Made by a program: the position numbers and the translations under genes. This document shows, one piece after another, positions 5,907 through 63,145 of a DNA stretch of 64,000 nt. This DNA comes from Candidatus Thorarchaeota archaeon (GTDB lineage Archaea > Asgardarchaeota > Thorarchaeia > Thorarchaeales > Thorarchaeaceae), in NCBI GenBank assembly GCA_963726195.1, contig CAVSBO010000008.1, positions 96,001-160,000 of the forward strand. Direction: 5' to 3'. A model generated the notes under the pieces. The model saw only the letters and a program-made list of their open reading frames with translations, searched no databases and was not told where the DNA came from. The first letter of the stretch is position 1, and each line of letters begins with the position of its first letter.

Positions 5907-8096
5907 TTATGCTTCTGCCTCGGACTGCAAAGACGTTCCACTGACCTGATTCTTCCTTATTGTTCCTCCTCGGCGGACATACAGGACTAGAGAGAATATC
6001 AGAACTATGACTGCCAAGTATGCTATAAACTGATAAAACGGCAGAATTGTCAACTGGAAAGGCTCTCCTTCCAAGGCACCTACGAGCATGTTCAGGACAT
6101 CGCCCACTGCAAGTACCGATATGAAAAGCCCGACGAGCTCCATTGCTCTGGCGCTTCTGGCTTCCTGTTCGGCTTCCAGCTTCTCTTGTTCCTTGGCCCT
6201 GCGTTCTACCACCCCCGCTGCGATATCTGAGAAGAGGGTCTCATGATGGGAAAGAATTCCAAGTCTGCGCTCGAGAAACTCAACCATGGGGTTCACATTC
6301 AGAGCATCCATCATCGCTCTCAGGAGCTCTGCGTGGTCGCGGAAATGCGAGGTAAGTGTTCCGCGAATTAGTTCGATGGTCATATGTGCCATCGTGTCAA
6401 AGTGAATTACTGGTAACAGCTCTTTTCGGCCATCTGAGATTCTTTTTTCAGCTACGTCGAGTTCAAGCTTATCAAGCTCATCGGCGAGGTCCTTTGTCTT
6501 CTCTACAAAGGAATTCAAGAGATCTCCGGCAATCTCTATCAGCGTAGAAATCAGACATCGCAAGCGAACAACGGTTTCGACCGTTTCCTGATATTGAACA
6601 ACAATCCAGTGCGGATCGTCCGGAAATGAGAGCACTCCATGGTTCTCTGTGGTTACAAGGAGATCGGTCGTGTGCGAGCGTATGGGGGCGAGATTGCGGG
6701 ACCGAACTGGTTCCCGAGTAATCCAATCATCAAGTGCCGCACGAGCTTCCATTTGTCCTATGAGCAGACCTCTGAAGTCCGGATGTTGAGCCGCCTCTTC
6801 GAGCGTGACTGCTGCTTCCTCGTTGGCATTTCTGAGCGAGATGCCGTGTCGAATCAATGCATATGCGTACCAATTGAGATGTGGAACGAATCTAATGGCA
6901 GCATCGGACTCAATTCTGGTGAAGGACTTCCGCAGTGCGTCGACTACTTCATCGGCGACTTCGGAGAGATACCTGTAGGTCTTGTCCTGCCATTTGATTG
7001 AATACTCTGCAGAGGGGGGACCGTTGAAAGTGAGGTACGTGCGCAAATCAGAGATTGTCATCTCCTCCTCCTCTGCCTTCAGATAGATGGTGCCAATCGC
7101 ATACCTGTACAATCTAACAGAAAGCGTCATCGACACATCCTTGCCTCTGAAGTTCAGCGTGACAGGTTGCAGCGAAATGACCAGATTCGTCATCCTGCTT
7201 GCTCCCAAAACTGTCTCGAACAGGTCACTGAGAGAATCCTCATCAACAGTCTCAATCTTTACACCGGCAGAATTCATCTGCTCCACAAAGCTAGTGCTGT
7301 CTTCCAAGAGTTTGTCCAAGATTCTGTTCAGGCACCTCTCCTCAACCCAGAAGCTAAGCATCCAATTGAGTTCATTGCTCTTCAGAACCAAGTATTCGGG
7401 GTGCTTTGCTGCCATGCTACTGTGACGCTGCAGAAAAGCGTAGTAGCTGGACAGTTCTGTGAAAGAGTCTTCGTCACCGCTTTCTTCGAGGAACTTCAGA
7501 CTTGAGATGATGGTTTTTTCTGCTTCTGCGTAGACCTTCTTGAACTGAGGGGTCCTTATTGCAGACATTGCTCTGGCATAGGCAGCCACTCCTTCTCCAT
7601 AGTATTTCCAGACCATCAGCTGCGAGCGAAGCCAGCCGACGAAATCGCCTTCTCGCTCCTCGAGGCCACCCAGGTATTCAAGCCCGCTTGCAGCCAAGTT
7701 TCCAAGTCTATTGGCGAACTCAAACATGGACTTCGGGTCCGTTGAGATGAGGGCATTCTCAAGATCAATTGCAGAACTTACGATTCCGTTTAGGGTTTTC
7801 AGCGAACGCAATCCCTTCTGCTCAAGCTTGGGACATGATTCTATGCTTTGATCAATGACTTCATCCGCTTTACGGAGGAGGTCCCTGGCCATTGCATAAT
7901 CGTATGAGGATTCCCACCTAGAATACCCCTCCATGTGCAGCATCAATACCTGAAGGACTATCGACAGTGTCCTGTCCTTGGAATCGGATAACTCTTTCTT
8001 GGCCATGATGGACGCGTCTTCATACTCGCATTCATCATAGAGGTCGAGTATTGGTTTGAGAATGGGCAGGAAGTCACGGAACGGCATAAGGTTCAC
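5907..8096 (-). CDS. Hypothetical protein: helical (TPR-like) N-terminus, coiled coil and two C-terminal TM helices (CorA/RMD1-like architecture)
   Basis: 729-aa ORF overlapping the upstream GNAT stop (GTGA). Confidence 0.6.
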   Translation of the reverse strand: MNLMPFRDFLPILKPILDLYDECEYEDASIMAKKELSDSKDRTLSIVLQVLMLHMEGYSRWESSYDYAMARDLLRKADEVIDQSIESCPKLEQKGLRSLKTLNGIVSSAIDLENALISTDPKSMFEFANRLGNLAASGLEYLGGLEEREGDFVGWLRSQLMVWKYYGEGVAAYARAMSAIRTPQFKKVYAEAEKTIISSLKFLEESGDEDSFTELSSYYAFLQRHSSMAAKHPEYLVLKSNELNWMLSFWVEERCLNRILDKLLEDSTSFVEQMNSAGVKIETVDEDSLSDLFETVLGASRMTNLVISLQPVTLNFRGKDVSMTLSVRLYRYAIGTIYLKAEEEEMTISDLRTYLTFNGPPSAEYSIKWQDKTYRYLSEVADEVVDALRKSFTRIESDAAIRFVPHLNWYAYALIRHGISLRNANEEAAVTLEEAAQHPDFRGLLIGQMEARAALDDWITREPVRSRNLAPIRSHTTDLLVTTENHGVLSFPDDPHWIVVQYQETVETVVRLRCLISTLIEIAGDLLNSFVEKTKDLADELDKLELDVAEKRISDGRKELLPVIHFDTMAHMTIELIRGTLTSHFRDHAELLRAMMDALNVNPMVEFLERRLGILSHHETLFSDIAAGVVERRAKEQEKLEAEQEARSARAMELVGLFISVLAVGDVLNMLVGALEGEPFQLTILPFYQFIAYLAVIVLIFSLVLYVRRGGTIRKNQVSGTSLQSEAEA

Positions 8097-9111: not shown

Positions 9112-9855
9112 CTACGGAAAGACCTCCAATAGGTCAATAATGTTCCTTACAACTGTGACATCTGGTGGAGCATGCTCGCCATCCTTTGGATTATAGGATG
9201 TCAGCAGAAACGGTGTCATCCCTGCTCTCCTTGCTCCTTCAATGTCGATACTGACGAAGTCTCCAATACAGGCACATCTGATGGGATTGACACCCAAGCG
9301 AGTCGCGGCTTGTATCAACATGAAAGGTGAGGGCTTCGCATAGCCGGGCACTCGTGAGTACTCCACTGCTTCGAAGAGATTGAGTATTGAATCCCTCTCG
9401 AGGAGGGGTGTTGGGTCCCCCCAGCGGTTTGTCACTAGCCCGAGCTTGTAACCCCTTGAGTGCAGCTCCTTTACGACCGACTTCGACCCGTCGGGCAAGC
9501 GGGACCGCATGTCTACACCGTAGCCTTCCCACTTAGAAATCATGTCTGCGGCTAGAACGTCAAGCCTCTCCTTGATTCCGAGCGAAGTGAGCAGCCTGTG
9601 TCCGTATTCAACCCACAAATCATGTGATGGTCTCCAGTGTTGGTCGGCATCAAAAGCTAGCATATGCTCGTTCAACCAACGGTCTGGGCCCCGTGTGAAT
9701 GCACCCTGAAGCCTTTCGTCTGAAAACCTACTTTGCTTTTCGAGACCTATTTCCTTGAGAAGCCTGCGAGCAATATCAAGCATCCTTGCGTCTGACGTAT
9801 ACAGAGTGTCATCAAGATCGAATATGAGAGCGATTTTCTTAATTGGAGACAGCAA
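9112..9855 (-). CDS. HAD-superfamily hydrolase
   Basis: FDLDDTL, VTN, KPSP and IGD..DIEGA motifs. Confidence 0.9.
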   Translation of the reverse strand: MLSPIKKIALIFDLDDTLYTSDARMLDIARRLLKEIGLEKQSRFSDERLQGAFTRGPDRWLNEHMLAFDADQHWRPSHDLWVEYGHRLLTSLGIKERLDVLAADMISKWEGYGVDMRSRLPDGSKSVVKELHSRGYKLGLVTNRWGDPTPLLERDSILNLFEAVEYSRVPGYAKPSPFMLIQAATRLGVNPIRCACIGDFVSIDIEGARRAGMTPFLLTSYNPKDGEHAPPDVTVVRNIIDLLEVFP

Positions 9856-10135
9856 AGAAGTGTCCTCGAGTCACGACTGTAATGATGATTGACTGAATGT
9901 CACCTTCTATCTATGGTTTGCGGCGATTGTGCATTAACTGTCTGAGTCTCGAGTTTGACTGACTACCACGGCGTGACCATGAACGAGCCTGTGGCTAGGC
10001 TGTCAGGCGGCGACTTTCGTTCGGACGGCTCCAAAATGACAGGTGTATCGCAATCACGGTGAGTGCGAAGAATGCTCTCGCCACGTTGGAGAATGATGAT
10101 GTCGAAATGCCTCCCTGCCGGATCAAGAGGTCCGC

Positions 10136-10586
10136 CTAGGAATCCCATGTGATTCCAAGCATTCTCTCGGCCGTTTCCCACAACCTTCGTTGCAGGTCCA
10201 AATCATAGGACAGCTCGGACGAGCGGCTCTCTTCCTTCTTTGAGAAATACTTGCCGCTGACACCCTCGATGTCTGGCGACGATGCAAGAAGAACAGAAGT
10301 CTCTGCCCCCTTCTCTGGAGGGATTTGCATTGGACGTACCATCTTGAACATGACACTGCTTCGGGTTCCTGCGTTGCCTCCCAGATTGGTTGCAACGAAA
10401 CCCGGATGAACGACGTTGGCAGTTACACCAGTGTTCTCCAGACGGCGAGCTAGTTCGTAAGTGAACATGAGAACCATTAGCTTGGCATTCTGATACGCTG
10501 TCATTCCTTTGTAGTGCTTCGTGCTCTGAAGATTGTCGAAGTCGATCACTCCATTCTTGTGAAGTCCTGAGGTTATGTTGATAACC
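10136..10586 (-). pseudogene. SDR oxidoreductase (retinol dehydrogenase-like), C-terminal half, interrupted by insertion
   Basis: VINITSGLH...AYQNAK (YxxxK)...VHPGFVATNL; joins the N-terminal half in frame as PSR-VIN. Confidence 0.9.
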
Positions 10587-10588
10587 GT

Positions 10589-12627
10589 TCATTGTAAGTT
10601 GGACAAAGTTGGACATATTTCCTTTGTCCTCCCAGGAACGGCACTGGGACTCTGGACATGAATTATGTTTCGTGCAGCATTGATGTCCGCATGAATGTGT
10701 GAGTCGCAGTTTGGACAGTAGAAGTACTCTCCACCTTTCTGTTCCACCTTTGACCTGCAACTATCGACACGTATGCCTTTCTGCCTGCACACATGGCAGG
10801 TCTGGCTGGTGTAGGCGGGGTTCACTGTCCACACACTGTACGGGCTATGACCCAGTGACTCGCGCATGTACCGGACAGTGTCGATAACCTCTCCCCACAG
10901 GTTGGTGGAGAGTCTCCACGACAGGGCTCCCTGACCAGCCGGGGTCTGGTAGTTCCTCAAGTCTTCGAAGTAAACGGTCTTCACACTGTGCTCTTCGCAG
11001 AACCAAACAGTGTGCGAAGCAACCAACCGGGAAACTTCACGGTCGAGACGACGCACCTTCTGCCACACAGCATCCTGATGTCTCTCTTTTTTTAGCAAGA
11101 ACACAGGATGCGACAGCCCCGGCCGTTTCTTGTCCCAGTTGTTCCTTCTCCTGTCCACTTCGGATCTGAGCAGCGAGGCCTGTTCTCTAAGCCTCTCCCT
11201 TTTCTCCAACAGATACTCCACTCTAAGCAGCTCGTCCAGGTAATCACCATCCTCTTGAACTGAAAGGGCAACGGGGACTCTCACACCCCTATCGACACCG
11301 GCTAGTGCAGTGTACTCCTTTTCTCCTAAGACCTGCAGCAGAGTCTTTCTGTCAGGGGAAAGAAAGGGGATTTGGAGTGTGACGCGATGACCTCTCATGA
11401 GCAGGCGAGGTGGGGCACTCCTCCTCAAGGACTTCAAACTCTTCATATCGGCCTCGAGCCTCGCCACCTCTTCGGGGTCGGATTCTCTCTTCTGTCTGAG
11501 GCATGAGAGCGCGTAGGCCAAGTGCTGGACTTGAATGGTGTTCATGAGCTGTTGGTGTTGGTCCTCAAGCTTCGCTGCCCTGAACCTCAGCCTGTGTTGC
11601 ACGAGCAACTCTTCCCTCCTGCTCGACTGCCTCGGCTCTGTTACGGCCGTCTCCCGCAGCACGAGGCAGCCAGTTCAGAAATCTGAAGGTCAGAGTCTGA
11701 GTACCATATGGAGAACCGTCGCTGGGTGTGCCATCGAGTCCCGGGAGGGAGCTTGATGTGGAGGAGAACCTCATTCTCCCTATCGTTGTCGAGTGTGAAC
11801 CAGTAACCCTGTCCCACACTGTTCTCTGTCGATGCCGAGTAGTCAAGGCTCCACTTTCTGAGCTGAGGGACTGTAAAGGGATACCCCTCCTTGTGCCAGC
11901 ATTGTATCCGCTCAGCTACGAGCGAGGTCACTTCCCCGAACTCGGGCGAGTTGGCCTGCAGGTGGTCACCGACCCGCTTCCTCTGCGCAGACCTCGACCC
12001 AAGGGGCTGAGCAAGTGAGGAGAGAATGTACTCGTCAAGAGCCCTCCTGATCTGTTTCAGAGCACCCAAGGCATAGTGATATCCTGTACCGTTGTCCTTT
12101 GCACGCTCACAGGAGTCTCTCACCTTTCGTATCAGGTCAGCTGGAATGTATCTGTTCCTGAGCAAACGGAGTTGGTCGGCAAGGGAAGCATCCAGAAGAG
12201 AAACTGCAGATTCCACAAGCCTTCTTCGAGTGTGGTCAGCATGAACCGTCCTGGCAGCCTGTTCCAGTACGTCCCTATGAAGCCTTTCGAACACAAGCTG
12301 TCTGAACTCTTCGTTATGCTGGTAACAGAGGTCACGCTCCTTCCTGAGGAGCGTGTAGCCATAACCCCTGTACTTCGTCAGCTCTTCGCCCAACCTCTTT
12401 GCTCTTGCAGGGTGAGAATAGACTCGCTCAAGTGCGAGGTTGACCGCCTTCACATACCTGTCCAAGTAAGTACCTATGGTAGCCAGCCCAAGATCCCCGA
12501 CCTTTGTGCCAAAGGTCCTGCATAATGTATGCAGTCTTTCTTGGGATGATATGGATGCGTTTGAGGGGAAGGTTCTCCTACTGAAGGCCGGGTCTGGCTG
12601 CTTTCCAAGACCTTTGTGCGAGGGCAT
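10589..12627 (-). CDS. tnpB: Large TnpB/Cas12-like RNA-guided endonuclease (~680 aa; 1-2 frameshifts near 11590-11745)
   Basis: RuvC-I LAGVDRG, RuvC-II VYFEDL, VNPAYTSQTCHVC, FYCPNC..HADINAARNI; N-terminal part in ORF 11641-12750; start chosen at the ATG downstream of a TATA-like tract. Confidence 0.85.
10596..10615 (+). repeat. Subterminal tandem repeat AAGTTGGACA x2 (TnpB-proximal end)
   Basis: Perfect 10-bp tandem, 9 bp inside the CC core. Confidence 0.85.
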
Positions 12628-12680
12628 GTAATCTTGGGAACACAGGGTGAAGGACTCGACAAGATATCTCACGTGACCAC

Positions 12681-12914
12681 AATTATATATGCCGCCCATT
12701 GTTGTATGCATGCTCTGCGTCCGGGGGTGGCGCTGGACGGGTCGTTTCACGGCAGTTCCTCAACATCTCTGTGTATTGCGGTCCTCTTAAGCGCCACCAA
12801 TTATATATATCATGGAAGTTTCCCAACTGAGAACTTATGCATACTATATTTGCCACTTTTGACTGTCATATCGCTTGTATAATTAGCCATATTGTCACAG
12901 CATCCTTATAAATA
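12681..12914. promoter_or_regulatory. Divergent AT-rich promoter region with three TATA-like boxes
   Basis: AATTATATAT 12681-12690, AATTATATATAT 12799-12810, TTATAAATA 12906-12914 (about 20 nt before ATG 12934). Confidence 0.55.
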
Positions 12915-12933
12915 GCTGAGGTCCACCAGTACC

Positions 12934-15900
12934 ATGCTCAAGGGCGAGACCGATGTCAGACCAAGTGAGGTTTTGAGAGATTCATTGTCAATAGGCCTGG
13001 CCGCCATAGCCAGACTGACAAGGTGTCGCTCCAATTCCACTGTCAGGAAGTACGTCGACTCGATAGCCCAGTGCTGGTCCGATGCATCTGCCAAGCTGGA
13101 AAACGTCCTTGCCACGACACAGTACGGAGCATCTGCGATCGTGTCATCAATCGCAGCCATAGAGCACAGTCTTCGGCACTCCATCTCAAGTTCCTCTGGC
13201 AGAGCACGAAACGCTACGGAAACCGCGAATTCAAACGGGTTTACGATTGGAGACAGGGCTCTGTTGGTCCGCTTAACGGGTTTCTGAACTACCTTGGAGC
13301 AAGGCTCAGAGACCTTGCCGTTACCCGCTATTCATTTCCAACACCCCAGCACTATCAGGTGAGAGAGTACCCTGACGGCTCCAAGAAGGTTCTCGCAGCG
13401 TCCGTTGCATCCAAGTTACCCATTGACGGCTCAGTAAAGAGATACTGGAAGGCAGGATACCCAGGGACATCGAGAGCCCCGCGGGTGCTGCTAGCACACC
13501 CAACTCTTCCGGAAATGGACTTCGTGGACATGCTCCGGGGGCATCTGGTCGAGCTCTCTCGTCAGCTGTTTATCTACAACGTGCCCCGTGATGATGCCCA
13601 TAGATACATCCGACTCTTGGTTGCTCGGTTAACGCCATTCCTCGACTGGGTCTACACAGGAGGAAAGGCAGGTCGCAAGAACTTCTGTCCTGATGGTGAC
13701 AGAGAACTCAGGCACCTTGTCCTCGAAATACGGTCCACTTACGGCAGAAGAGCTGGACAGGGTCGTAGGACATCTGAGATGGCTCAGCAAGAGGGAACTC
13801 CGAGTGTCAGTATCGCTACGCTCACAGAGAAAGCCATTGGACTACTCCAGAGCACCCAAGATCCTGAGATTCGGAAGGCATGCGAGCGCATACTTGACAG
13901 TATAAACCAAGAGGTTCTCACCGAGAATGACGTGATGCGGCTCAGGGAGCACATAGTCGCTCTAATTCAACAGGAGGGCAATGACTGGCACAGGGTGCTT
14001 CTATCAGACCTGCATCACTGTTCTCTCATCGATGCTGTTCTGAGCGGCGACTCGATGCTTGAGACTGTCTCCGATAGACAGTTCTTAGCCGAGGTTCTCA
14101 ATGAAAGGTTCTGAAGACCAAGGGCAGGCTGATATTGTCCTCTTTCTGAGGAGAAAAGCGGGACTACGAGTAGTCTGGACTCCCGTGATGGTTCTGGAGA
14201 TAAAGACGAGAAGCTCCTTCGATTTTGCGCTCTACGGCCTAAGACCACGAACCAAGATTATGAACGCGTTTGTGCCAGCCCTTTGCCCTTGGAAAGTGTT
14301 CTCTTTCAGAGAAAGAGTGGGAGAGCATCGTTTCGTCAGAACCGCCGCAGAGCAACCTGCGACAGTTGGAGCTCTATGAACGAGGACTGATAGAGGAGTA
14401 CCGACGACTGGTTCCTGAGGATCACACGCTGCCGTCTCTCTGTGGAAAGGTGTCGTAGTGGTCGACAGCTTACAGACATACAAAGAGACCTTCGAAGCCT
14501 TCTCTGCTCTCACTCAGAACCTGATGCAGCTTCGTCACTTGCCATCAGGAAAAGGAAGATGGTCTTCGCTGAGCATGAAAGACCTCTTTGACAGGAGTCC
14601 GAGAGTCGCATTGCTGATGTCACCTTCCGAGGGGCCATCCCACTTGCTCAGTCGGACCACATTTCCAGACTCCATCTTGATAGAGAACCCGTTCAAGGAC
14701 AGTACCGAACACCAGCGGAATCTGACGCTCTACATACCTGTCGCATCAGTCAACATCTGGAGGAAGAGCCGCTGCATGGCACTCCAAGAACTGGCATTTG
14801 CTCAACCATATCCAAGAACTGCGCGAAAGAGACCGGGATGTTGGAGGTGTGGTCTGGCTGGATTTAACCAGCTCTCTTCCTGAAGGGTTTCGCAGACGTG
14901 CTTTCAGGCTGGAGAACACCAGGAGGAAGAAAGGGCGGCTTCTGGAACACTTGCAGCGATTCTGGATGAAGTCGATTTTCATGACATGGGGAATATGGTG
15001 CGAGAATACCTTGCAGGCAGGGCTGATGCAGACATAGCACGGGAGCTGACTGGTATCAGGCAATCACGGCAGCCCGGCTCCCGATTCATCGTCGTCATTG
15101 ATGGATGGAGCGAACTCCGCCAAATGGTCCATGGCTCTGAAAGGCAGAGACTCAGAGCCCTTGAACAGCTTCTCGTCGAGAAGATTGTCGCAAAAGAGAA
15201 CGAGGTCATATGGGTTGACAGTGGAATCCAGCACACGAAGATGAACTTGATTTACCAGAGACCATGCGTACGTCCGCTGGAGGCAGATTCGCCTCGCAGA
15301 CTTCGTCTCGGGGAGATATTATGGAACATGCCTTTGCCGCCAAAGGGATTCGGATGGCAGGCACCATGGTTTGACGATAAGAGGGTGATTATTCAGGACA
15401 CTGCCACTTCAGCACCTCTCTGGTCAACGGTAATTGATGTGCCGATGTTAAGACATTGGCCGAGGAAGTTCAGAGGTCTATCGAACAGGGAAGTGACAAT
15501 CCAGGAATATGAAGTCAGGTCCAGTCTTCTGACAGACGAAGACATGTACGGTCGGTCTGTCCGGCTTTCTTCTATCCAAGCCGATATGCAGCAGCTTTCT
15601 GAAGAGACAATCATGGACATTCAAGAGAAAGCGATGAGTCTCGCTCCGAGCCTACTCAGATCAAGAAACAGGGAAGAACAACAAGTCATACCAGACACCG
15701 AACAGTCGTCGATGACCCTGCTTTCCGTTATGGTTACATGTGCCTCGCCTCCGACCCTTAGTGATAGACTGCATCTCCAGCCCTGTCATCCTCCTCCTGA
15801 GCCCGGGCGGTCCAAGCTGAGATATGTGGACCCGGAGCGGATAACACGTGAGTGGCAGAACAGAATCCTAAAGAAGGACGAGGAAGATAGCAAGAGAAGT

Positions 15901-18058
15901 CGCATGACCCGGCGGCCTCCGCTCTATGCTGTGACCATGTCTCAGAGAATCGACTCCGACACAACTCGAAGACGTGAAGTCAGACGACTAATGCATGCGG
16001 CCGACTATCTCAAGCACCGACTCGACCCCGGCGAAGATCTGGAAGTTCTGTTCGAAGACATAGTTGCTTGCTGTCGTTCCACGCTTGAAGGCCCAAGAAA
16101 TGGCCAGTTGTATCTGAAGACTTTGTTGGAAGTCCATGACATGATTCTTGAGAACACGAGACGGCGAGGTGCATGGCTTTTGATAGAGCAAGAGAGGAAC
16201 ACCCTCGGAGATGTTCTGAGCCTTGAGAACCGTGCCGCGCTTCAACAAGCGATGTCTCGCAACCCCGAGCTGCTGACGCTATATGGCAACAATCTGTTCC
16301 TTGCTGTAATCGTTGCCATCACGAGAATCATGGATGACCCCGTTGATCTGGGGATACTCCCACTATGGAGAGCAGTTGCAGAATGGGAGCTCTATCAGAT
16401 GGGTTTCAAGCCCGCAGAGAGGCCGCCATACATGGCTCGTTCCAGATACGACTTCGCGTCAATCTATGGCAACCTGCTGTTCCGGACAAGGAACCTCGTA
16501 TCTCAGAAACAGAAATCACAGGCCGCACCGAAGAGGCCTCAGGCATATCAGTATAGAGAGGGGATACTTGTCGGTAAAGAGGGGTCGTCCTGCTGGCTCC
16601 TGTTCAAAGCGGATGATGGAAGGGTTGTATGCGGGTTGCTAGAGGACCCCGGTGGCAGGCTGGGCATAGGTTGGTATCGATGTTCTACCAATCCTGCGCA
16701 GATGTCTGAGGCTGCTGAGGACACTCTTCACGGGAGCAACGACGACATTCAGATGCACTTGGCCGTGACCACCGTGGGCAAATCCGAGATACTCTGGCAG
16801 CGGCACGAAGAAGGCACCGGTGGCTGGATGCTTCTGGGACGACTTGAGTATCAGATTAACGAACGAGAGGGAGTCGCAACCATACCGTGGCTGAAGACAT
16901 CAGAACCGGATTTGAAGACCTCGCTAGGCCTATCTGAGAGCATGCCCGTAGGTGTACCATCCTCAGAGTCAACGTCGCGGCTACTAACCCCTCTCAAGAA
17001 AATAGCAGAGTGGAATGTCGAAGTCAAGAGTGTGAAGTGTGAGGTCTCATTGGACACTAGGAAAAGAGCGTATGTCATTACATTTCGCAATCCTGAACTG
17101 CCCAGCCAGTGAAGTCTACGAGAGTTTTGAGAGCGCAGACACCCTTGAAATCGTGTCCGTACTGAGGTCGCCCGTGACAGGAAAACAACAGGTGATCACA
17201 AAGGAAGGAGCAGTCCTCACTTGGGACCATCTGAAGGATATCGACTATGGGGTCGCAACAGTTCCAACTCGAGATGGTGAGGCAGATATCAGCCTGTCAT
17301 TCCTCAGACCTCTTGTCCATCGCAGTCGGTTCTTTGCCGGAGATTATGTGGTTCCATACAATGCGACTCAGCTGTTCACTCTTAGAGAGGGACCGCCTGT
17401 GACGATCAGAGTCCTCCCGTGGGACAGAAAACAAAGTGACTATGACCTCAGACGACTCAGGGTCACCATTGATGGACTCAACGAGGACTCTGGCTTGAAG
17501 GGTCTCGAGGATAGAATGATGAAAGTCCGGGATGTCGCTCTGCTGACGGACTGCGAGCACTCATCGATGTCAGGTCAGGTCTGGTACATCCCGTACGAGT
17601 TAACGTCAGAAAGGTGGTCGGGCTTAAGTCTCCTGAGGACATATCAGATTCCCGACTTGTGGAGCTGACTTTCGGAGTTGGAGGAGGAGAGCCATGATTC
17701 AGATGAGGAGTCAGAGTCTTACTCAGACGAGAAGCAAGAGAAGAGTTCCAAAGCGGAACAACGTCAAATGGTCTTCGTGTCAGCCAATGTAATCGTTGGC
17801 AGGCGAATGACTGTCATAGAGTATCATGTAGACGTGACGTTGGCTCCGGTCGATGATACAAAAAGCGTGGAGGTGGGAGAACTCATGACAGTGAGGTGGG
17901 AGAAAGGCCGTACTGCAGCCAACTATGAGGGCTTAGCAGAAGAGATTAGTGCGAATCTCAGGAAACAGGGCGTGGTGGAAGGCGACCATGGGGAAGCCAC
18001 CCGAGACATTATGGCTCTGCTGGAGAAGGCGGGCCTGCCGGTTCTGGAGGATGAGTAA
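12934..18058 (+). CDS. Giant (~1,700 aa) hypothetical protein with PD-(D/E)XK/RecB-like nuclease motifs and a degenerate P-loop-like region, split into about 8 ORFs by frameshifts
   Basis: Abutting or overlapping + strand ORFs from 12934 to 18058; motifs GQADIVL..VLEIKT..QLELYE; Walker-B-like FIVVIDG. Confidence 0.6.
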
Positions 18059-18187
18059 GAGGAAATGGTTGCAGTGCCAGATACTGTGAACCCAAGGCTG
18101 GCAGCCGCGGTTCCTCGATCACGACTTAGCCTATCCGACATTGTTACAACACGCTGCAGCATTCATCCGCCTTGGATGTGTCCTCCA

Positions 18188-18207
18188 TGTCCAAGATTGT
18201 CCAACTT
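18188..18207 (-). repeat. Subterminal tandem repeat AAGTTGGACA-ATCTTGGACA (distal end, inverted relative to the other end)
   Basis: TGTCCAAGAT TGTCCAACTT on the + strand. Confidence 0.85.
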
Positions 18208-18221
18208 CTAGGCAGTGGATA

Positions 18222-18629
18222 CCCTTGAAGGGGCGCTCGATTTCAAGATCGGCAGCAGTTCGTGTGTCAGGAGAAAAGGAGCAAGGTAGTTCACTGCCAA
18301 TGATCGTCGAAACCATCGACAGTTACCTCTCGCTTGTTGAAGACAGCGCCAGCATTGTTGTCTAGAACGTCAAGTCGCTCATGACTATTCTGAAACTCTT
18401 CTGCAAAACGACGTATCTCTTGCACAGAGGAGAGGTCACAAATCATGAGTTCGAGCGCATTGTTGCCGGTTGTCTTAGCGATTTCCGCACGCGCTTGTTC
18501 GCCTCGCTCTCTGTTTCTAACAACCATAACTACATTGGCATCCATCCGAGCCAATGCTCTGGCCGTCTCTTTTCCTATCCCTGAGTTGCTGCCGGTGACT
18601 ACGCAGACCTTGTTTGTCATGAGTCCCAT
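18222..18629 (-). pseudogene. SDR oxidoreductase N-terminal half (plus a 1-bp frameshift near 18310)
   Basis: VTGSNSGIG, CDLSS, LDVLDNNAG, AVNYLAPFLLT, ending at SSAPSR at the insertion junction. Confidence 0.9.
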
Positions 18630-18794
18630 TCTCTCTGCTCCCAGTACACTACTCGTGTTCTGTTGGTGCTTCATGAAACCAATAACACGGATTATCAGAA
18701 TCGCAACGGATTTCCTATGATTCCGTTATTGTAGTATCGATAGGGCCTTTTCCGTGCGTCGAGAGGTTGCACTCATAATTGTCACTCTAATCCA

Positions 18795-21002
<2,208 letters not shown>

Positions 21003-21009
21003 TTCAGAG

Positions 21010-22422
21010 ATGAGGACCAGCGTAGACGTATCAAAGCATATCGATGAGATGAGTTCACGACTGGACGCAGGACACTATCTCTCGGTTGGATATCGCAATG
21101 TTGGCTGTCCGCTGTCAGCCACTGCTTCTGAGTCGATTCAGGCAATAGAATCCTTCCCCGAACACACCCAGTTGAGCGAAGTCGTGAGGGGAATTGACAT
21201 ACTCCGAGATTCTCCAGAGTGTACGTTGATGAACAAAAGGGGGCCCCATTCCTTTCTGGCACAGATATTACGAGAACATACAGTCCGCGAATAAAATACC
21301 TGTCCTTGGAGGCCCACAGGAATTTGTTACCTCGGCTGACAATCCGGAAGGGAATGATTCTCGTATCATTGGCTCAGTAACTTTATAAGCCGGACAGCCT
21401 TGGTTGGCGAATACTGGAATGGTTGGACTGCAAGTCAGCATGTCCTTAGAATAAGAGTCGACGATGATTGTTTGAACGCGGGGTATCTATATGCATTCTT
21501 GTGTACCGAGTATGCACAGTCCCAGATTAGTAGAGAGATTCACGGGTCAGTTGTTGACGAAATCAATGAGGTTCAAATGGGAAATGTTCTGCTACCGATT
21601 CCTGACAAGCGGATTCAGGCCTCAATTGCAAAGCTGGCATGCGACGGAGTCGCTAGGTTGGATTATTTTCGGTCCACGACCCAGAAAGCTACTCAGACAA
21701 TATCAGCAGAAACTGGCGTGGATATGCATCTGGCTGATAGCAAATGGCACGTACTAGAGTCCAATGCGGTACGCGACCGACTTGATGCGACACACTACAT
21801 GCGAGCAGCCTTAGAGATTGAAAGGATGATGGCCAGTCAATCGTCTGAAAAGGTAGGAAGACTCGCAAGTGTCTTTCTGGCACCCAGATTCAGGCGCTTC
21901 TACGTGGATTATAGCAATGGAATTCCATTCCTCTCCGGAAAGAGCATATTGCAGGTATTTCCGACGCCACTGCAGTACCTTTCACGTGACTTGCATGCTG
22001 ACCTCATTCCTCTTCTAGAAGTCAAAAAGGGAACCATTCTGGTCACATGTTCTGGGACAGTCGGGAATATCGGAATGGTATGGAATCAATGGAATGGATG
22101 GGCTGCCTCTCAGCACATTCTGCGGGTAACACCCTCATCCGAACATATCCATCCCGGATTCCTCTATGCATTTCTGATGAGTCCGTGTGCCCAGCTGCAG
22201 ATAGCGAAGCAAGTTCACGGCTCGGTCATCGATGAGATTACAGACTACCAGCTGGGCGAGCTTCTTGTGCCCCTGATTCAGTGGGAGAAACAGAAGGAGA
22301 TTGGGGAAAAAATACATCTGGCGCTGGATGCGCTCGACGAGGCGCGTTCTCTGATTTCCGCAGCAGTGGATGGCGCCGCCTCGGGGATTATGGAGGCCGT
22401 TCGGCCTCTCCAATCATTATGA
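21010..22422 (+). CDS. hsdS: Restriction-modification specificity subunit (HsdS-like, two TRDs), frameshifted at the 5' end
   Basis: RLDA.HY twice, GIPFLSG, GTILVTCSGTVG, YLYAFL, HGSV.DEI repeated. Confidence 0.8.
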
Positions 22423-30984: not shown

Positions 30985-31011
30985 TCAACCGAACTGCCAC
31001 ACTTCTTTCAT

Positions 31012-31240
31012 AAAGAAGCGCCGCGAGAAGACCCCCAACTTCAGTCGGGGGAGGAAACGCCGCCACGGGATATACGAGTTTAAATGTGAGCTTGAGAAGT
31101 GAAATATCGTATCCGACCGTGGCAATGCTGTGGTCGGGAGGGCGCATGTCAACCGCCCGAATGTCGCGCGAAATGACGAGGTAGAGTTCCTACCGCGGAT
31201 CGCAGTGGCAAGCCTACGACTTTGGTCGCGGGTAGTTGGC
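31012..31240 (+). mobile_element. Non-autonomous IS200/IS605 miniature element, copy 2
   Basis: Follows TTCAT; same sequence family as copies 1 and 3; ends GTTGGC. Confidence 0.85.
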
Positions 31241-31283
31241 CTTTCCACAATGCTCAAGCCAATAGAATCTCAAAACGGTTCAC

Positions 31284-62266: not shown

Positions 62267-62435
62267 TCGGTCTTCTATGATAGATGCGCCTCCATAGCCC
62301 AGTACAGCAAATCAAGTACAAGGAGCAAAGATCGTATTTACGCGTTATGTCCGCTGAACCTGTGAGATAGGGGTTCGCAATAGCAATCGATCCGAATCTG
62401 GCATAGGTACCACACATACTAGGTAGGGGACTCAT

Positions 62436-62666
62436 AGAGAAACGCGGCGAGGAGTCCCCCAAATTCAGTCTGGGGAGGAATCGCCGCCGCGGGGGACTTA
62501 TGAGTTTAAATGTGACCCTGAAAAGTGAAGGATTGTATCCGACCGTGGCAATGCTGTGGTCGGGAGGGCGAAAGTCAACCGCCCGAATGTCGCACGAAAT
62601 GACGAGGTAGAGTTCCTACCGCGGATCGCAGTGGCAAGCCTACGACTTTAGTCGCGGGTAGTTGAC
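62436..62666 (+). mobile_element. Non-autonomous IS200/IS605 miniature element, copy 3
   Basis: Follows CTCAT; ends GTTGAC; overlaps the 3' end of the GNAT gene. Confidence 0.85.
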
Positions 62667-63145
62667 CTATGTTTCAGTCTGAACGCGTAGACAATCTGGT
62701 CGTTGTGCCAGCTTAGGTAGTGTGAGACGCGACCTCCCACCTCAAACCCGCACGACTCGTAGAACCGCTGCGCATAGTCCATGAAGTCCCCCGTGTCCAC
62801 GCGTAGCACATCTGCACTGCGGTGTTCAGCACCCAGCCTCTTGATGTGCTCGACCAGCTCCCTGCCAATTCCTTTCCGCAGGTAGTCGTGATGAACCACT
62901 ATCGACTCTATGACCAGTGCTCTCCACCCATATTGGACTGCCGCGAATCCGACCACATCATGGCTAGCAGGGTCCTCTGCCACGAGCACTGTACCGAACT
63001 CCGGGTTCTGAGCGAAGAGGCCGATTCTCAGTTTCTCATGCGATAAGAACTGGGGACCGAAGTTCTCAGCGTTCAGAATGATGTCTTGCAGAACAGGCCA
63101 GTCCTCAGGTCTGTAGTTTCTGATGATTGCCGCCATTTGGGTCAT
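62648..63145 (-). CDS. GNAT acetyltransferase (last codons and stop supplied by the mini-element)
   Basis: VHHDYLRKGIGREL, AQRFYESCGF. Confidence 0.9.
   Translation of the reverse strand: MTQMAAIIRNYRPEDWPVLQDIILNAENFGPQFLSHEKLRIGLFAQNPEFGTVLVAEDPASHDVVGFAAVQYGWRALVIESIVVHHDYLRKGIGRELVEHIKRLGAEHRSADVLRVDTGDFMDYAQRFYESCGFEVGGRVSHYLSWHNDQIVYAFRLKHRSTTRD

Follow-up and report, generated by a model that had tools for sequence, protein, structure and literature searches.

We conclude that the expanded tnpB gene examined here lies at the right end of a transposon that has inserted into a dehydrogenase gene. In the reading we favor, which we consider likely, the transposon is a Thorarchaeota-specific member of the IS607 family that is moved by the recombinase TnpA and whose TnpB would both cut the empty site and repress its own gene. 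An earlier note on the stretch of DNA analyzed (the window, 64,000 nucleotides in full) had considered tnpB alone, and had missed a 7.6-kb element with a divergent giant gene. The element and its flanks are as follows.

10584..18223, minus strand: whole IS607-type transposon of 7,637 bp, to which a duplicated GGT crossover core of 3 bp is added; no tnpA, non-autonomous
10584..10648, minus strand: right end and predicted 3' omega-RNA scaffold, with a hairpin, TnpA-type repeats and a pseudoknot closing on the GGT core
18150..18223, minus strand: left end, in inverse orientation to the right end and lacking 3 nt present in sister ends; TTGGACA repeats at 10-bp spacing
10136..10583, minus strand: 3' half of the short-chain dehydrogenase gene (Pfam adh_short), frame restored on excision
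18221..18629, minus strand: 5' half of the short-chain dehydrogenase gene, with an extra 1-bp deletion near 18307

The empty site is present in three public runs (X1, X2 and X3, from two studies), in which 10583 is joined to 18221 with 7,637 bp skipped and a 3-base ambiguity at the joint. The flanks of the empty site differ by 1 substitution and 1 gap over about 1,150 bp, and removal of the element rejoins the dehydrogenase halves in frame. The insertion is polymorphic among close strains. A related copy on contig C16 of the same genome matches the window element at 87.6% across 7.6 kb. The TTGGACA repeats occur at 10-bp spacing in both ends, and these ends are common to many other sites. The crossover core varies (GGT, GGC or GAT) and is accompanied by no longer target duplication. 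A G precedes the left end in about 20 of 22 true ends, giving a target consensus of AG-GG-T/C; the true left ends were chosen by eye, the left-end regular expression being too loose. The guide positions that follow the core have no sequence bias. IS607 elements likewise have GG ends and no target duplication (PMC13565253).

A sister copy on contig C3 has ends of the identical type together with an IS607 TnpA, which scored 173.8 against an NCBIfam cut-off of 110 and is the sole resolvase-family match in the window's assembly. The full form of the element is ordered left end, tnpA (encoding a serine recombinase), a convergent giant gene of the aCas1 type, a shared promoter region, the enlarged tnpB and the right end. 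Among the nine loci of sufficient length, tnpA lies beyond the giant gene in five (C3, L045, L051, L053 and L128) and is missing from four, the window copy included; the order left end, tnpA, giant, tnpB, right end also occurs in four other assemblies. At least 15 mini-elements of ~200 bp in the genome have retained the two ends, along with a TATA-like box and a structured RNA, and copies of the transposon without the giant gene carry these ends as well. The copies lacking the giant gene nest at 4-5 points of the tree, and several adjoin a truncated tnpA. Because of this nesting, and because the giant gene is divergent upstream of tnpB in most loci (33 of 44 informative ones), giant-less copies are best read as deletion derivatives. 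Based on the type of junction, the IS607 TnpA in full copies and the mobility of giant-less copies, TnpA, and not aCas1, probably moves the transposon. The link to IS607 drawn in the earlier note is thus upheld by the shared ends, the empty site and the TnpA of sister copies.

The element resembles IS607-family transposons such as IS607 and IS1535 (PMC13565253) in its serine recombinase TnpA, GG ends, G-rich target, short repeats in both ends and right-end RNA with a pseudoknot. In contrast to them, the window's kind is about 8 kb rather than about 2 kb, has a 5-kb accessory gene between tnpA and tnpB, encodes a TnpB of about 715 aa and has a second scaffold at the 5' end of tnpB. Some other readings of the element were rejected. 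It is not an IStron: there is no group I intron at the left end, no significant Rfam match was found in 9500-18800, and only about 165 bp separate the stop codon of the giant gene from the end. Nor is it a casposon, since there is only a 3-bp core with no long target duplication and the 7.6-kb element has neither room for nor any trace of PolB. A type V CRISPR (Cas12) effector was rejected because no linked array was found. A simple repeat scan of the 89%-complete assembly found no CRISPR array, extending the earlier note's report of none nearby, and the fully delimited element contains none.

Several copies have been rearranged. At L002 (9600-12230), a giant-less copy with a truncated tnpA splits tldD, and its self-target (see below) has been lost with a rearranged promoter. 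L006 (G000:C8:55321-59495) has the same ends, and within them 3' remnants of the giant gene and of tnpB flank two unrelated open reading frames of 609 and 426 codons that resemble surface or membrane proteins, which suggests cargo capture. The paralogue at L004 (G000:C16, about 21540-21560) has both open reading frames intact and a left end that lacks its outer ~35 bp; it is probably immobile. Two mini-elements at G000:C8:162250-162760 form a tandem pair separated by 270 bp, and each has a flank guide of its own.

The earlier note had placed a TnpB of ~680 aa at 10589-12627. The expanded protein is real, but its gene begins farther upstream.

10589..12750, minus strand: expanded tnpB, starting from the GTG at 12750; 719 aa when read through two +1 frameshifts (~11742 and ~11592)
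10685..11293, minus strand: D-E-D triad of RuvC, with the C4 zinc finger; both unchanged in all 96 aligned homologues
11434..11670 (approximate), minus strand: WED-inserted helical hairpin of ~80 aa before the last two WED strands (AlphaFold, paralogue residues 364-442, pLDDT about 80-95)

We moved the start upstream of 12627 because the first conserved strand, YLVESF at 12657, lies 5' of the ATG used before. The GTG at 12750 agrees with the conserved start of homologues and places ~485 aa ahead of RuvC-I. The coding sequence is spread over three reading frames of the minus strand. The RuvC-I D is codon 11293-11291 (in GVDRG), the RuvC-II E is codon 10966-10964 (in FEDL), the zinc finger consists of two CxxC pairs at 10798-10706, and the RuvC-III D is codon 10687-10685. 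All seven residues (D489, E598, D691 and the four cysteines), the triad and zinc finger that had been noticed before, are invariant in the 96 aligned homologues, and PF07282 scored above its Pfam cut-off. The protein is encoded by one gene, as previously supposed: more than 100 homologues of 575-760 aa are single open reading frames, and these, with an intact paralogue, rule out a separate gene for the N-terminal part.

This paralogue, in the same genome (G000:C16:26999-29167), is 722 aa in one open frame and 87% identical to the window's TnpB. Compared with it, the window has single extra bases at ~11742 and ~11592, where the earlier note had put frameshifts (near 11745 and 11590) and had wondered about sequencing errors. 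Error in long reads is indeed the likelier origin of the frameshifts, and the family is intact whether they are errors or real. No contig assembled from the public runs spans the frameshifts in the window's own copy. Along its whole length the window copy has 11 net single-base indels relative to the C16 copy and no new stop in 689 changed codons. There are 119 synonymous and 98 nonsynonymous codon differences in tnpB, and 235 and 237 in the giant gene. The synonymous share is far above neutral, a pattern of purifying selection acting between the paralogues on both genes. A tenable if less probable account of the frameshifts is that the window copy has truly decayed and is mobilized in trans as a dead passenger. 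Several of the indels are not homopolymer slips, the host genes at 5.9-9.9 kb are intact and the left end is short by 3 nt, as might be expected of decay; however, 11 single-base indels have produced zero nonsense codons, the extra 1-bp deletion in the flank (near 18307) is absent from near-identical strains, a 1.5-kb poly-T run lies 600 bp from the element, and 3 of 4 long copies are split within this assembly whereas most copies in other genomes are whole.

The N-terminal half of the protein, used alone as a query, retrieved 111 proteins, 575-760 aa long, of which almost all contain the Pfam domain of the TnpB C-terminus. Homologues of this length number ~110 and belong to Thorarchaeota in every case that carries a name. 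The expanded clade is present in 20 of 36 genomes of the window's own family and in 0 of the 24 genomes of other families that were searched, in agreement with the Asgard host thought probable before. Outside the clade, a search of 1.84 billion representatives found no match to the ~380 N-terminal profile positions. The nearest outsiders are proteins of 500-680 aa that match in the RuvC region only, and the gene of the best one lies after an IS607 tnpA. The clade is separate from the genome's other TnpBs in a RuvC tree, on a stem of 1.16 with an SH-aLRT of 99, which bears out the earlier note's distinct expanded clade; this was a quick tree with an unresolved backbone, made without bootstrap and without Fanzor or named Cas12 sequences. 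The named TnpB/Cas12 models of NCBIfam all scored below their cut-offs (guided_TnpB, 61 against 100; Cas12f2, 48 against 450; IS607_TnpB, 28 against 350).

The AlphaFold model of the intact paralogue (pLDDT 80.6) has, in order, a disordered stretch of 29 residues, WED strand 1, a helical REC lobe of ~200 aa, interrupted WED strands, and a RuvC domain with long inserted helices and a zinc finger. Strands 451-466 come after helices 364-442 in this model, in line with the helical insert that the earlier note had placed before the last WED-like strand. The best fold match is Cas12f1 (AsCas12f1; Z 17.3, rmsd 4.4, 384 aligned), followed by Cas12p, Fanzor2 and TnpB at Z 14-15 (TnpB, 14.2-14.4; Fanzor2 9b0l, 14.6). 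With Z of 14-17 to Cas12f and TnpB over 350-390 residues, the modeled WED-REC-RuvC fold is nearest to Cas12f/TnpB. The protein shares its fold, canonical D-E-D triad and zinc finger with Cas12f1 and ISDra2 TnpB (8dzj, 7wju, 8h1j and 8iaz), and differs from them in about 300 extra residues (a larger REC lobe, the helical WED insert and longer RuvC helices), in an identity of only 11-17% and in having no CRISPR array in the assembly scanned.

The earlier note's suggestion of relevance to the origin of Fanzors does not hold. Fanzor2 and pro-Fanzors share an IS607 association and the TnpB fold with this protein (9b0l being the Fanzor2 matched above). However, their signatures are DPG in RuvC-I and a RuvC-II E six residues before the zinc finger (Yoon et al., 10.1101/2023.08.09.552727), whereas here DRG is invariant and E598 is 56 residues, not 6, from C654. 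Both motifs rule out a Fanzor link, and the expanded TnpB has no bearing on where Fanzors came from. Similarly, a TldR was rejected, as the triad is invariant (96/96) and RuvC is not inactivated.

Divergent from tnpB in the window is the giant gene.

12934..18058, plus strand: giant gene of ~1,700 aa, with a Cas1-fold domain, a PD-(D/E)xK nuclease, a RecA-like domain and a C-terminal half of no assigned fold

The gene is broken in the window by nine net 1-bp frameshifts and is whole at C16. In a model of residues 1-850 (pLDDT 88.9), residues 1-255 resemble the catalytic domain of Cas1 (Z 12.7 and 12.6, the top two of 48,161 chains; for the best, rmsd 3.9 over 176 aligned). Ten Cas1 or casposase chains are among the top 50 fold matches, and residues 590-838 resemble a RecA-like ATPase by comparison of model folds. 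The assignment to Cas1 is at the level of fold only, as no sequence-level match was found for the giant protein. Searches of Pfam, PDB profiles and the Cas1 family assigned it to no sequence family, and a feature search of the Atlas returned only low-score nuclease-NTPase leads for residues 1-900 and nothing for 860-1706, a result that proves neither novelty nor absence. No canonical Cas1 was found by Pfam in the 89%-complete assembly. E75, H187, D194, D197 and R200 are conserved, and so are D398, E420 and K422 of the PD-(D/E)xK motif. The E, H and D would be the Cas1 triad, going by what is known of Cas1 in general. In the tree, the giant gene is ancestral in the tnpB clade. At L050 and L129 it has the same orientation as tnpB, unlike at all other loci.

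TnpBs associated with aCas1 in Asgard archaea were reportedly described by Makarova et al. in 2020 (CRISPR J). Two such groups, Cas1H-Asgard-1 and -2, are tied to aCas1 in the main text of Altae-Tran et al. 2023 (PMC10691335), where aCas1 is suggested to be the transposase. The pairing found here is, judging from the modeled Cas1 fold, very probably of this published kind: the host is an Asgard archaeon, a TnpB is stably paired with a Cas1-fold giant, and there are flanking repeats. In its partner gene the protein matches groups already described, at least as the main text presents them, which largely amounts to the nesting in a described clade that the earlier note said would refute its reading. 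A second, unrelated TnpB in the window's genome is also linked to a giant, which fits the two groups in that account. The GTTCACTCA motif at the end of the published downstream hypervariable region has no exact or positionally conserved copy downstream of the expanded clade and may, as given there, describe the other group; a copy with one mismatch follows the other giant-linked TnpB at C16. The published main text names no IS607 TnpA, GG ends, mini-elements or self-targeting guide for these groups (PMC10691335). The IS607-type mechanism and the internal self-guide probably go beyond the published accounts, so far as their main text extends. The second giant-linked locus (L007; G000:C16:216436-223383) has a frameshifted giant head-to-head with a ~560-aa TnpB and an adjoining tRNA-Asp-like sequence. 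Its TnpB (C16:221677) has no canonical RuvC-II E and no tnpA, and the locus probably represents the other published aCas1 group.

Two candidate guide RNAs, one at the right end and one inside tnpB, are predicted from the following features.

10564..10583, minus strand: predicted guide taken from the flank; it would pair with the empty donor site of the dehydrogenase gene, as deduced from the position of the end and the empty site
12691..12738, minus strand: second, internal omega-RNA-like scaffold, a hairpin and pseudoknot in the first ~20 codons of tnpB
12680..12690, minus strand: guide of 11 nt inside tnpB, with an identical copy in the gene's promoter
12798..12812, minus strand: self-target (12808-12798) and TAM-like motif (TGAT, 12812-12809)

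The right-end hairpin and pseudoknot are conserved and the flank is variable, as in a predicted omega RNA. With the TAM, the right-end guides match no other site in the genome except a probable empty allele on the small contig C9. (This is the flank guide of a mini-element on contig C10, which recurs on C9 after AAGGGT; both contigs are of the same assembly.) In the internal scaffold, as in the right-end RNA, the hairpin loop pairs with the seven bases ahead of the guide-like stretch; the codons of this scaffold correspond to the disordered stretch of the TnpB model. The self-target is followed closely by the putative TATA box of tnpB (about 12792-12784). In 39 of 42 distinct loci, at least 10 of the guide's 12 nt agree with a site located 116-151 nt upstream, compared with 8.7% across loci, and perfect runs of at least 9 nt join 35 of the 42 guides to their own promoters, compared with 3.7% across loci; the loci are related and these counts are not independent. 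There are 38 different guides, and the median perfect match is 12 nt. T-G-D-T precedes the target in 38-39 of 39 loci, at bases outside the search pattern. Full pairing of the pseudoknot occurs in 92% of combinations within a locus and in 40% of those between loci, with changes on both sides at several pairs, and guide and target differ at the same two positions between the window and C16. The pattern search did not detect the motif in 6 of 48 loci, and 3 of 42 loci have no promoter match, two of them with rearranged promoters adjacent to tnpA. The last three bases of the TAM are probably G-D-T: insertion sites have AGGGT, and the promoter has TG[A/G/T]T. Position -4 is mostly G at insertion sites and T at the promoter, and for the two motifs to agree, one TAM relaxed at -4 must be assumed.

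Precedents exist for such an arrangement. With a 10-nt guide, ISDge10 TnpB binds without cutting (PMC13507860), and for Cas9 and Cascade, duplicated repeats turn the nuclease to promoter repression (PMC8730458). The duplicated scaffold, short promoter complementarity and (predicted) repression seen here resemble the long form of tracrRNA, scaRNA, CreA (PMC8730458) and TldR. In contrast to those systems, this is a transposon TnpB with an intact active site, and the RNA lies inside its own coding sequence. Literature searches, of incomplete coverage, turned up no report of a TnpB that represses itself through an internal guide. Taken alone, RNA-guided self-repression of tnpB is, from the covariation of guide and promoter, reasonably probable.

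It is barely credible that an old duplication, chance in AT-rich DNA or constraint on the protein produced the 5' scaffold and the promoter match as a side effect with no regulatory role. Guides and promoters are AT-rich, but matches run at 3.7-8.7% across loci and at 83-93% for own promoters, 38 distinct guides track their own promoters at a fixed spacing of 116-151 nt, the upstream TGDT is conserved, and the pseudoknot changes are compensatory. If the match is regulatory, the self-guide could instead repress the promoter in order to keep a toxic giant nuclease silent, which would make the element addictive in the manner of CreTA. The conserved PD-(D/E)xK residues (D398, E420, K422) of the giant, the ~180-bp intergenic region that it shares with tnpB and the precedent of CreA (PMC8730458) are consistent with this idea, which we nevertheless find very improbable: the target abuts the TATA box of tnpB, about 100 bp from that of the giant, and the match is retained in the giant-less loci L012, L066, L070, L121 and L123.

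The giant could also be the mover. aCas1 might be the transposase or a co-integrase, with tnpA a relic or helper, and in the strongest form TnpB would guide integration by aCas1. This role has been proposed for aCas1-TnpB loci in the main text of PMC10691335 and would fit the Cas1 catalytic-domain fold, the conserved E75, H187, D194/D197 and R200, and a giant gene that is ancestral in the clade and also adjoins the unrelated, tnpA-less TnpB at C16:221677. We consider it unlikely, because the junctions are 3-bp GG(T) with no long target duplication, as in IS607 (PMC13565253), mini-elements and giant-less copies are mobile with identical ends, complete copies have a full IS607 TnpA, and there is no sequence bias at the guide positions past the core. 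Our evidence therefore counts against the published idea, as its main text puts it, of aCas1 as the transposase of this TnpB group. We read the giant as a stably inherited accessory gene, not a transposase. This is the weakest link of our explanation; the giant has kept its apparent Cas1 catalytic residues, which would be unexplained if it were only cargo.

In the model we favor, of an IS607-family transposon moved by TnpA, the recombinase would be supplied in trans from the C3 copy to move the window element. By analogy with other TnpBs, TnpB would load the right-end RNA, with a guide from flanking host DNA, and, once the element has been excised, cut the empty site, whose repair would bring the element back. 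We postulate that the 5' end of the tnpB mRNA is cut to yield a second RNA, which TnpB would load as well. An internal guide of 11-14 nt is probably too short to trigger cutting, and TnpB would then sit beside its own TATA box and repress its own transcription. A few self-matches are 14-16 nt and could permit cutting. In a more ambitious and quite improbable version, internal-guide self-regulation would be combined with recruitment of the Cas1/nuclease/ATPase giant by the ~300 extra residues, for array-less RNA-guided integration or guide acquisition via dispersed mini-elements; the coupling of TnpB to the aCas1 giant is speculation.

The large protein alone is an added member of a catalogued group, and its size is modest news. 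If the model is correct, two guides derived from a single mRNA would switch an active TnpB from cutting to self-repression and back, and RNA-guided autoregulation, known for Cas9 and Cascade, would extend to transposon nucleases. Self-repression would also explain how the host tolerates many guide-bearing copies. The ends, empty site, predicted TAM, RNA scaffold and intact paralogue make the role of the Asgard Cas1 directly testable.

Elsewhere in the window, about 1,530 T followed by about 47 C at 18800-20378 are almost certainly an assembly artefact, and the next gene, which is restriction-modification-like, looks fragmented. Encoded at 5907-8096 on the minus strand is a protein of 729 aa that matches no Pfam family and has two hydrophobic helices at its C terminus. 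Three transposase-less mini-elements of ~238 bp, at 1702-1939, 31003-31242 and 62432-62668, belong to a different TnpB family, and at least 10 copies or fragments of this mini-element are present genome-wide.
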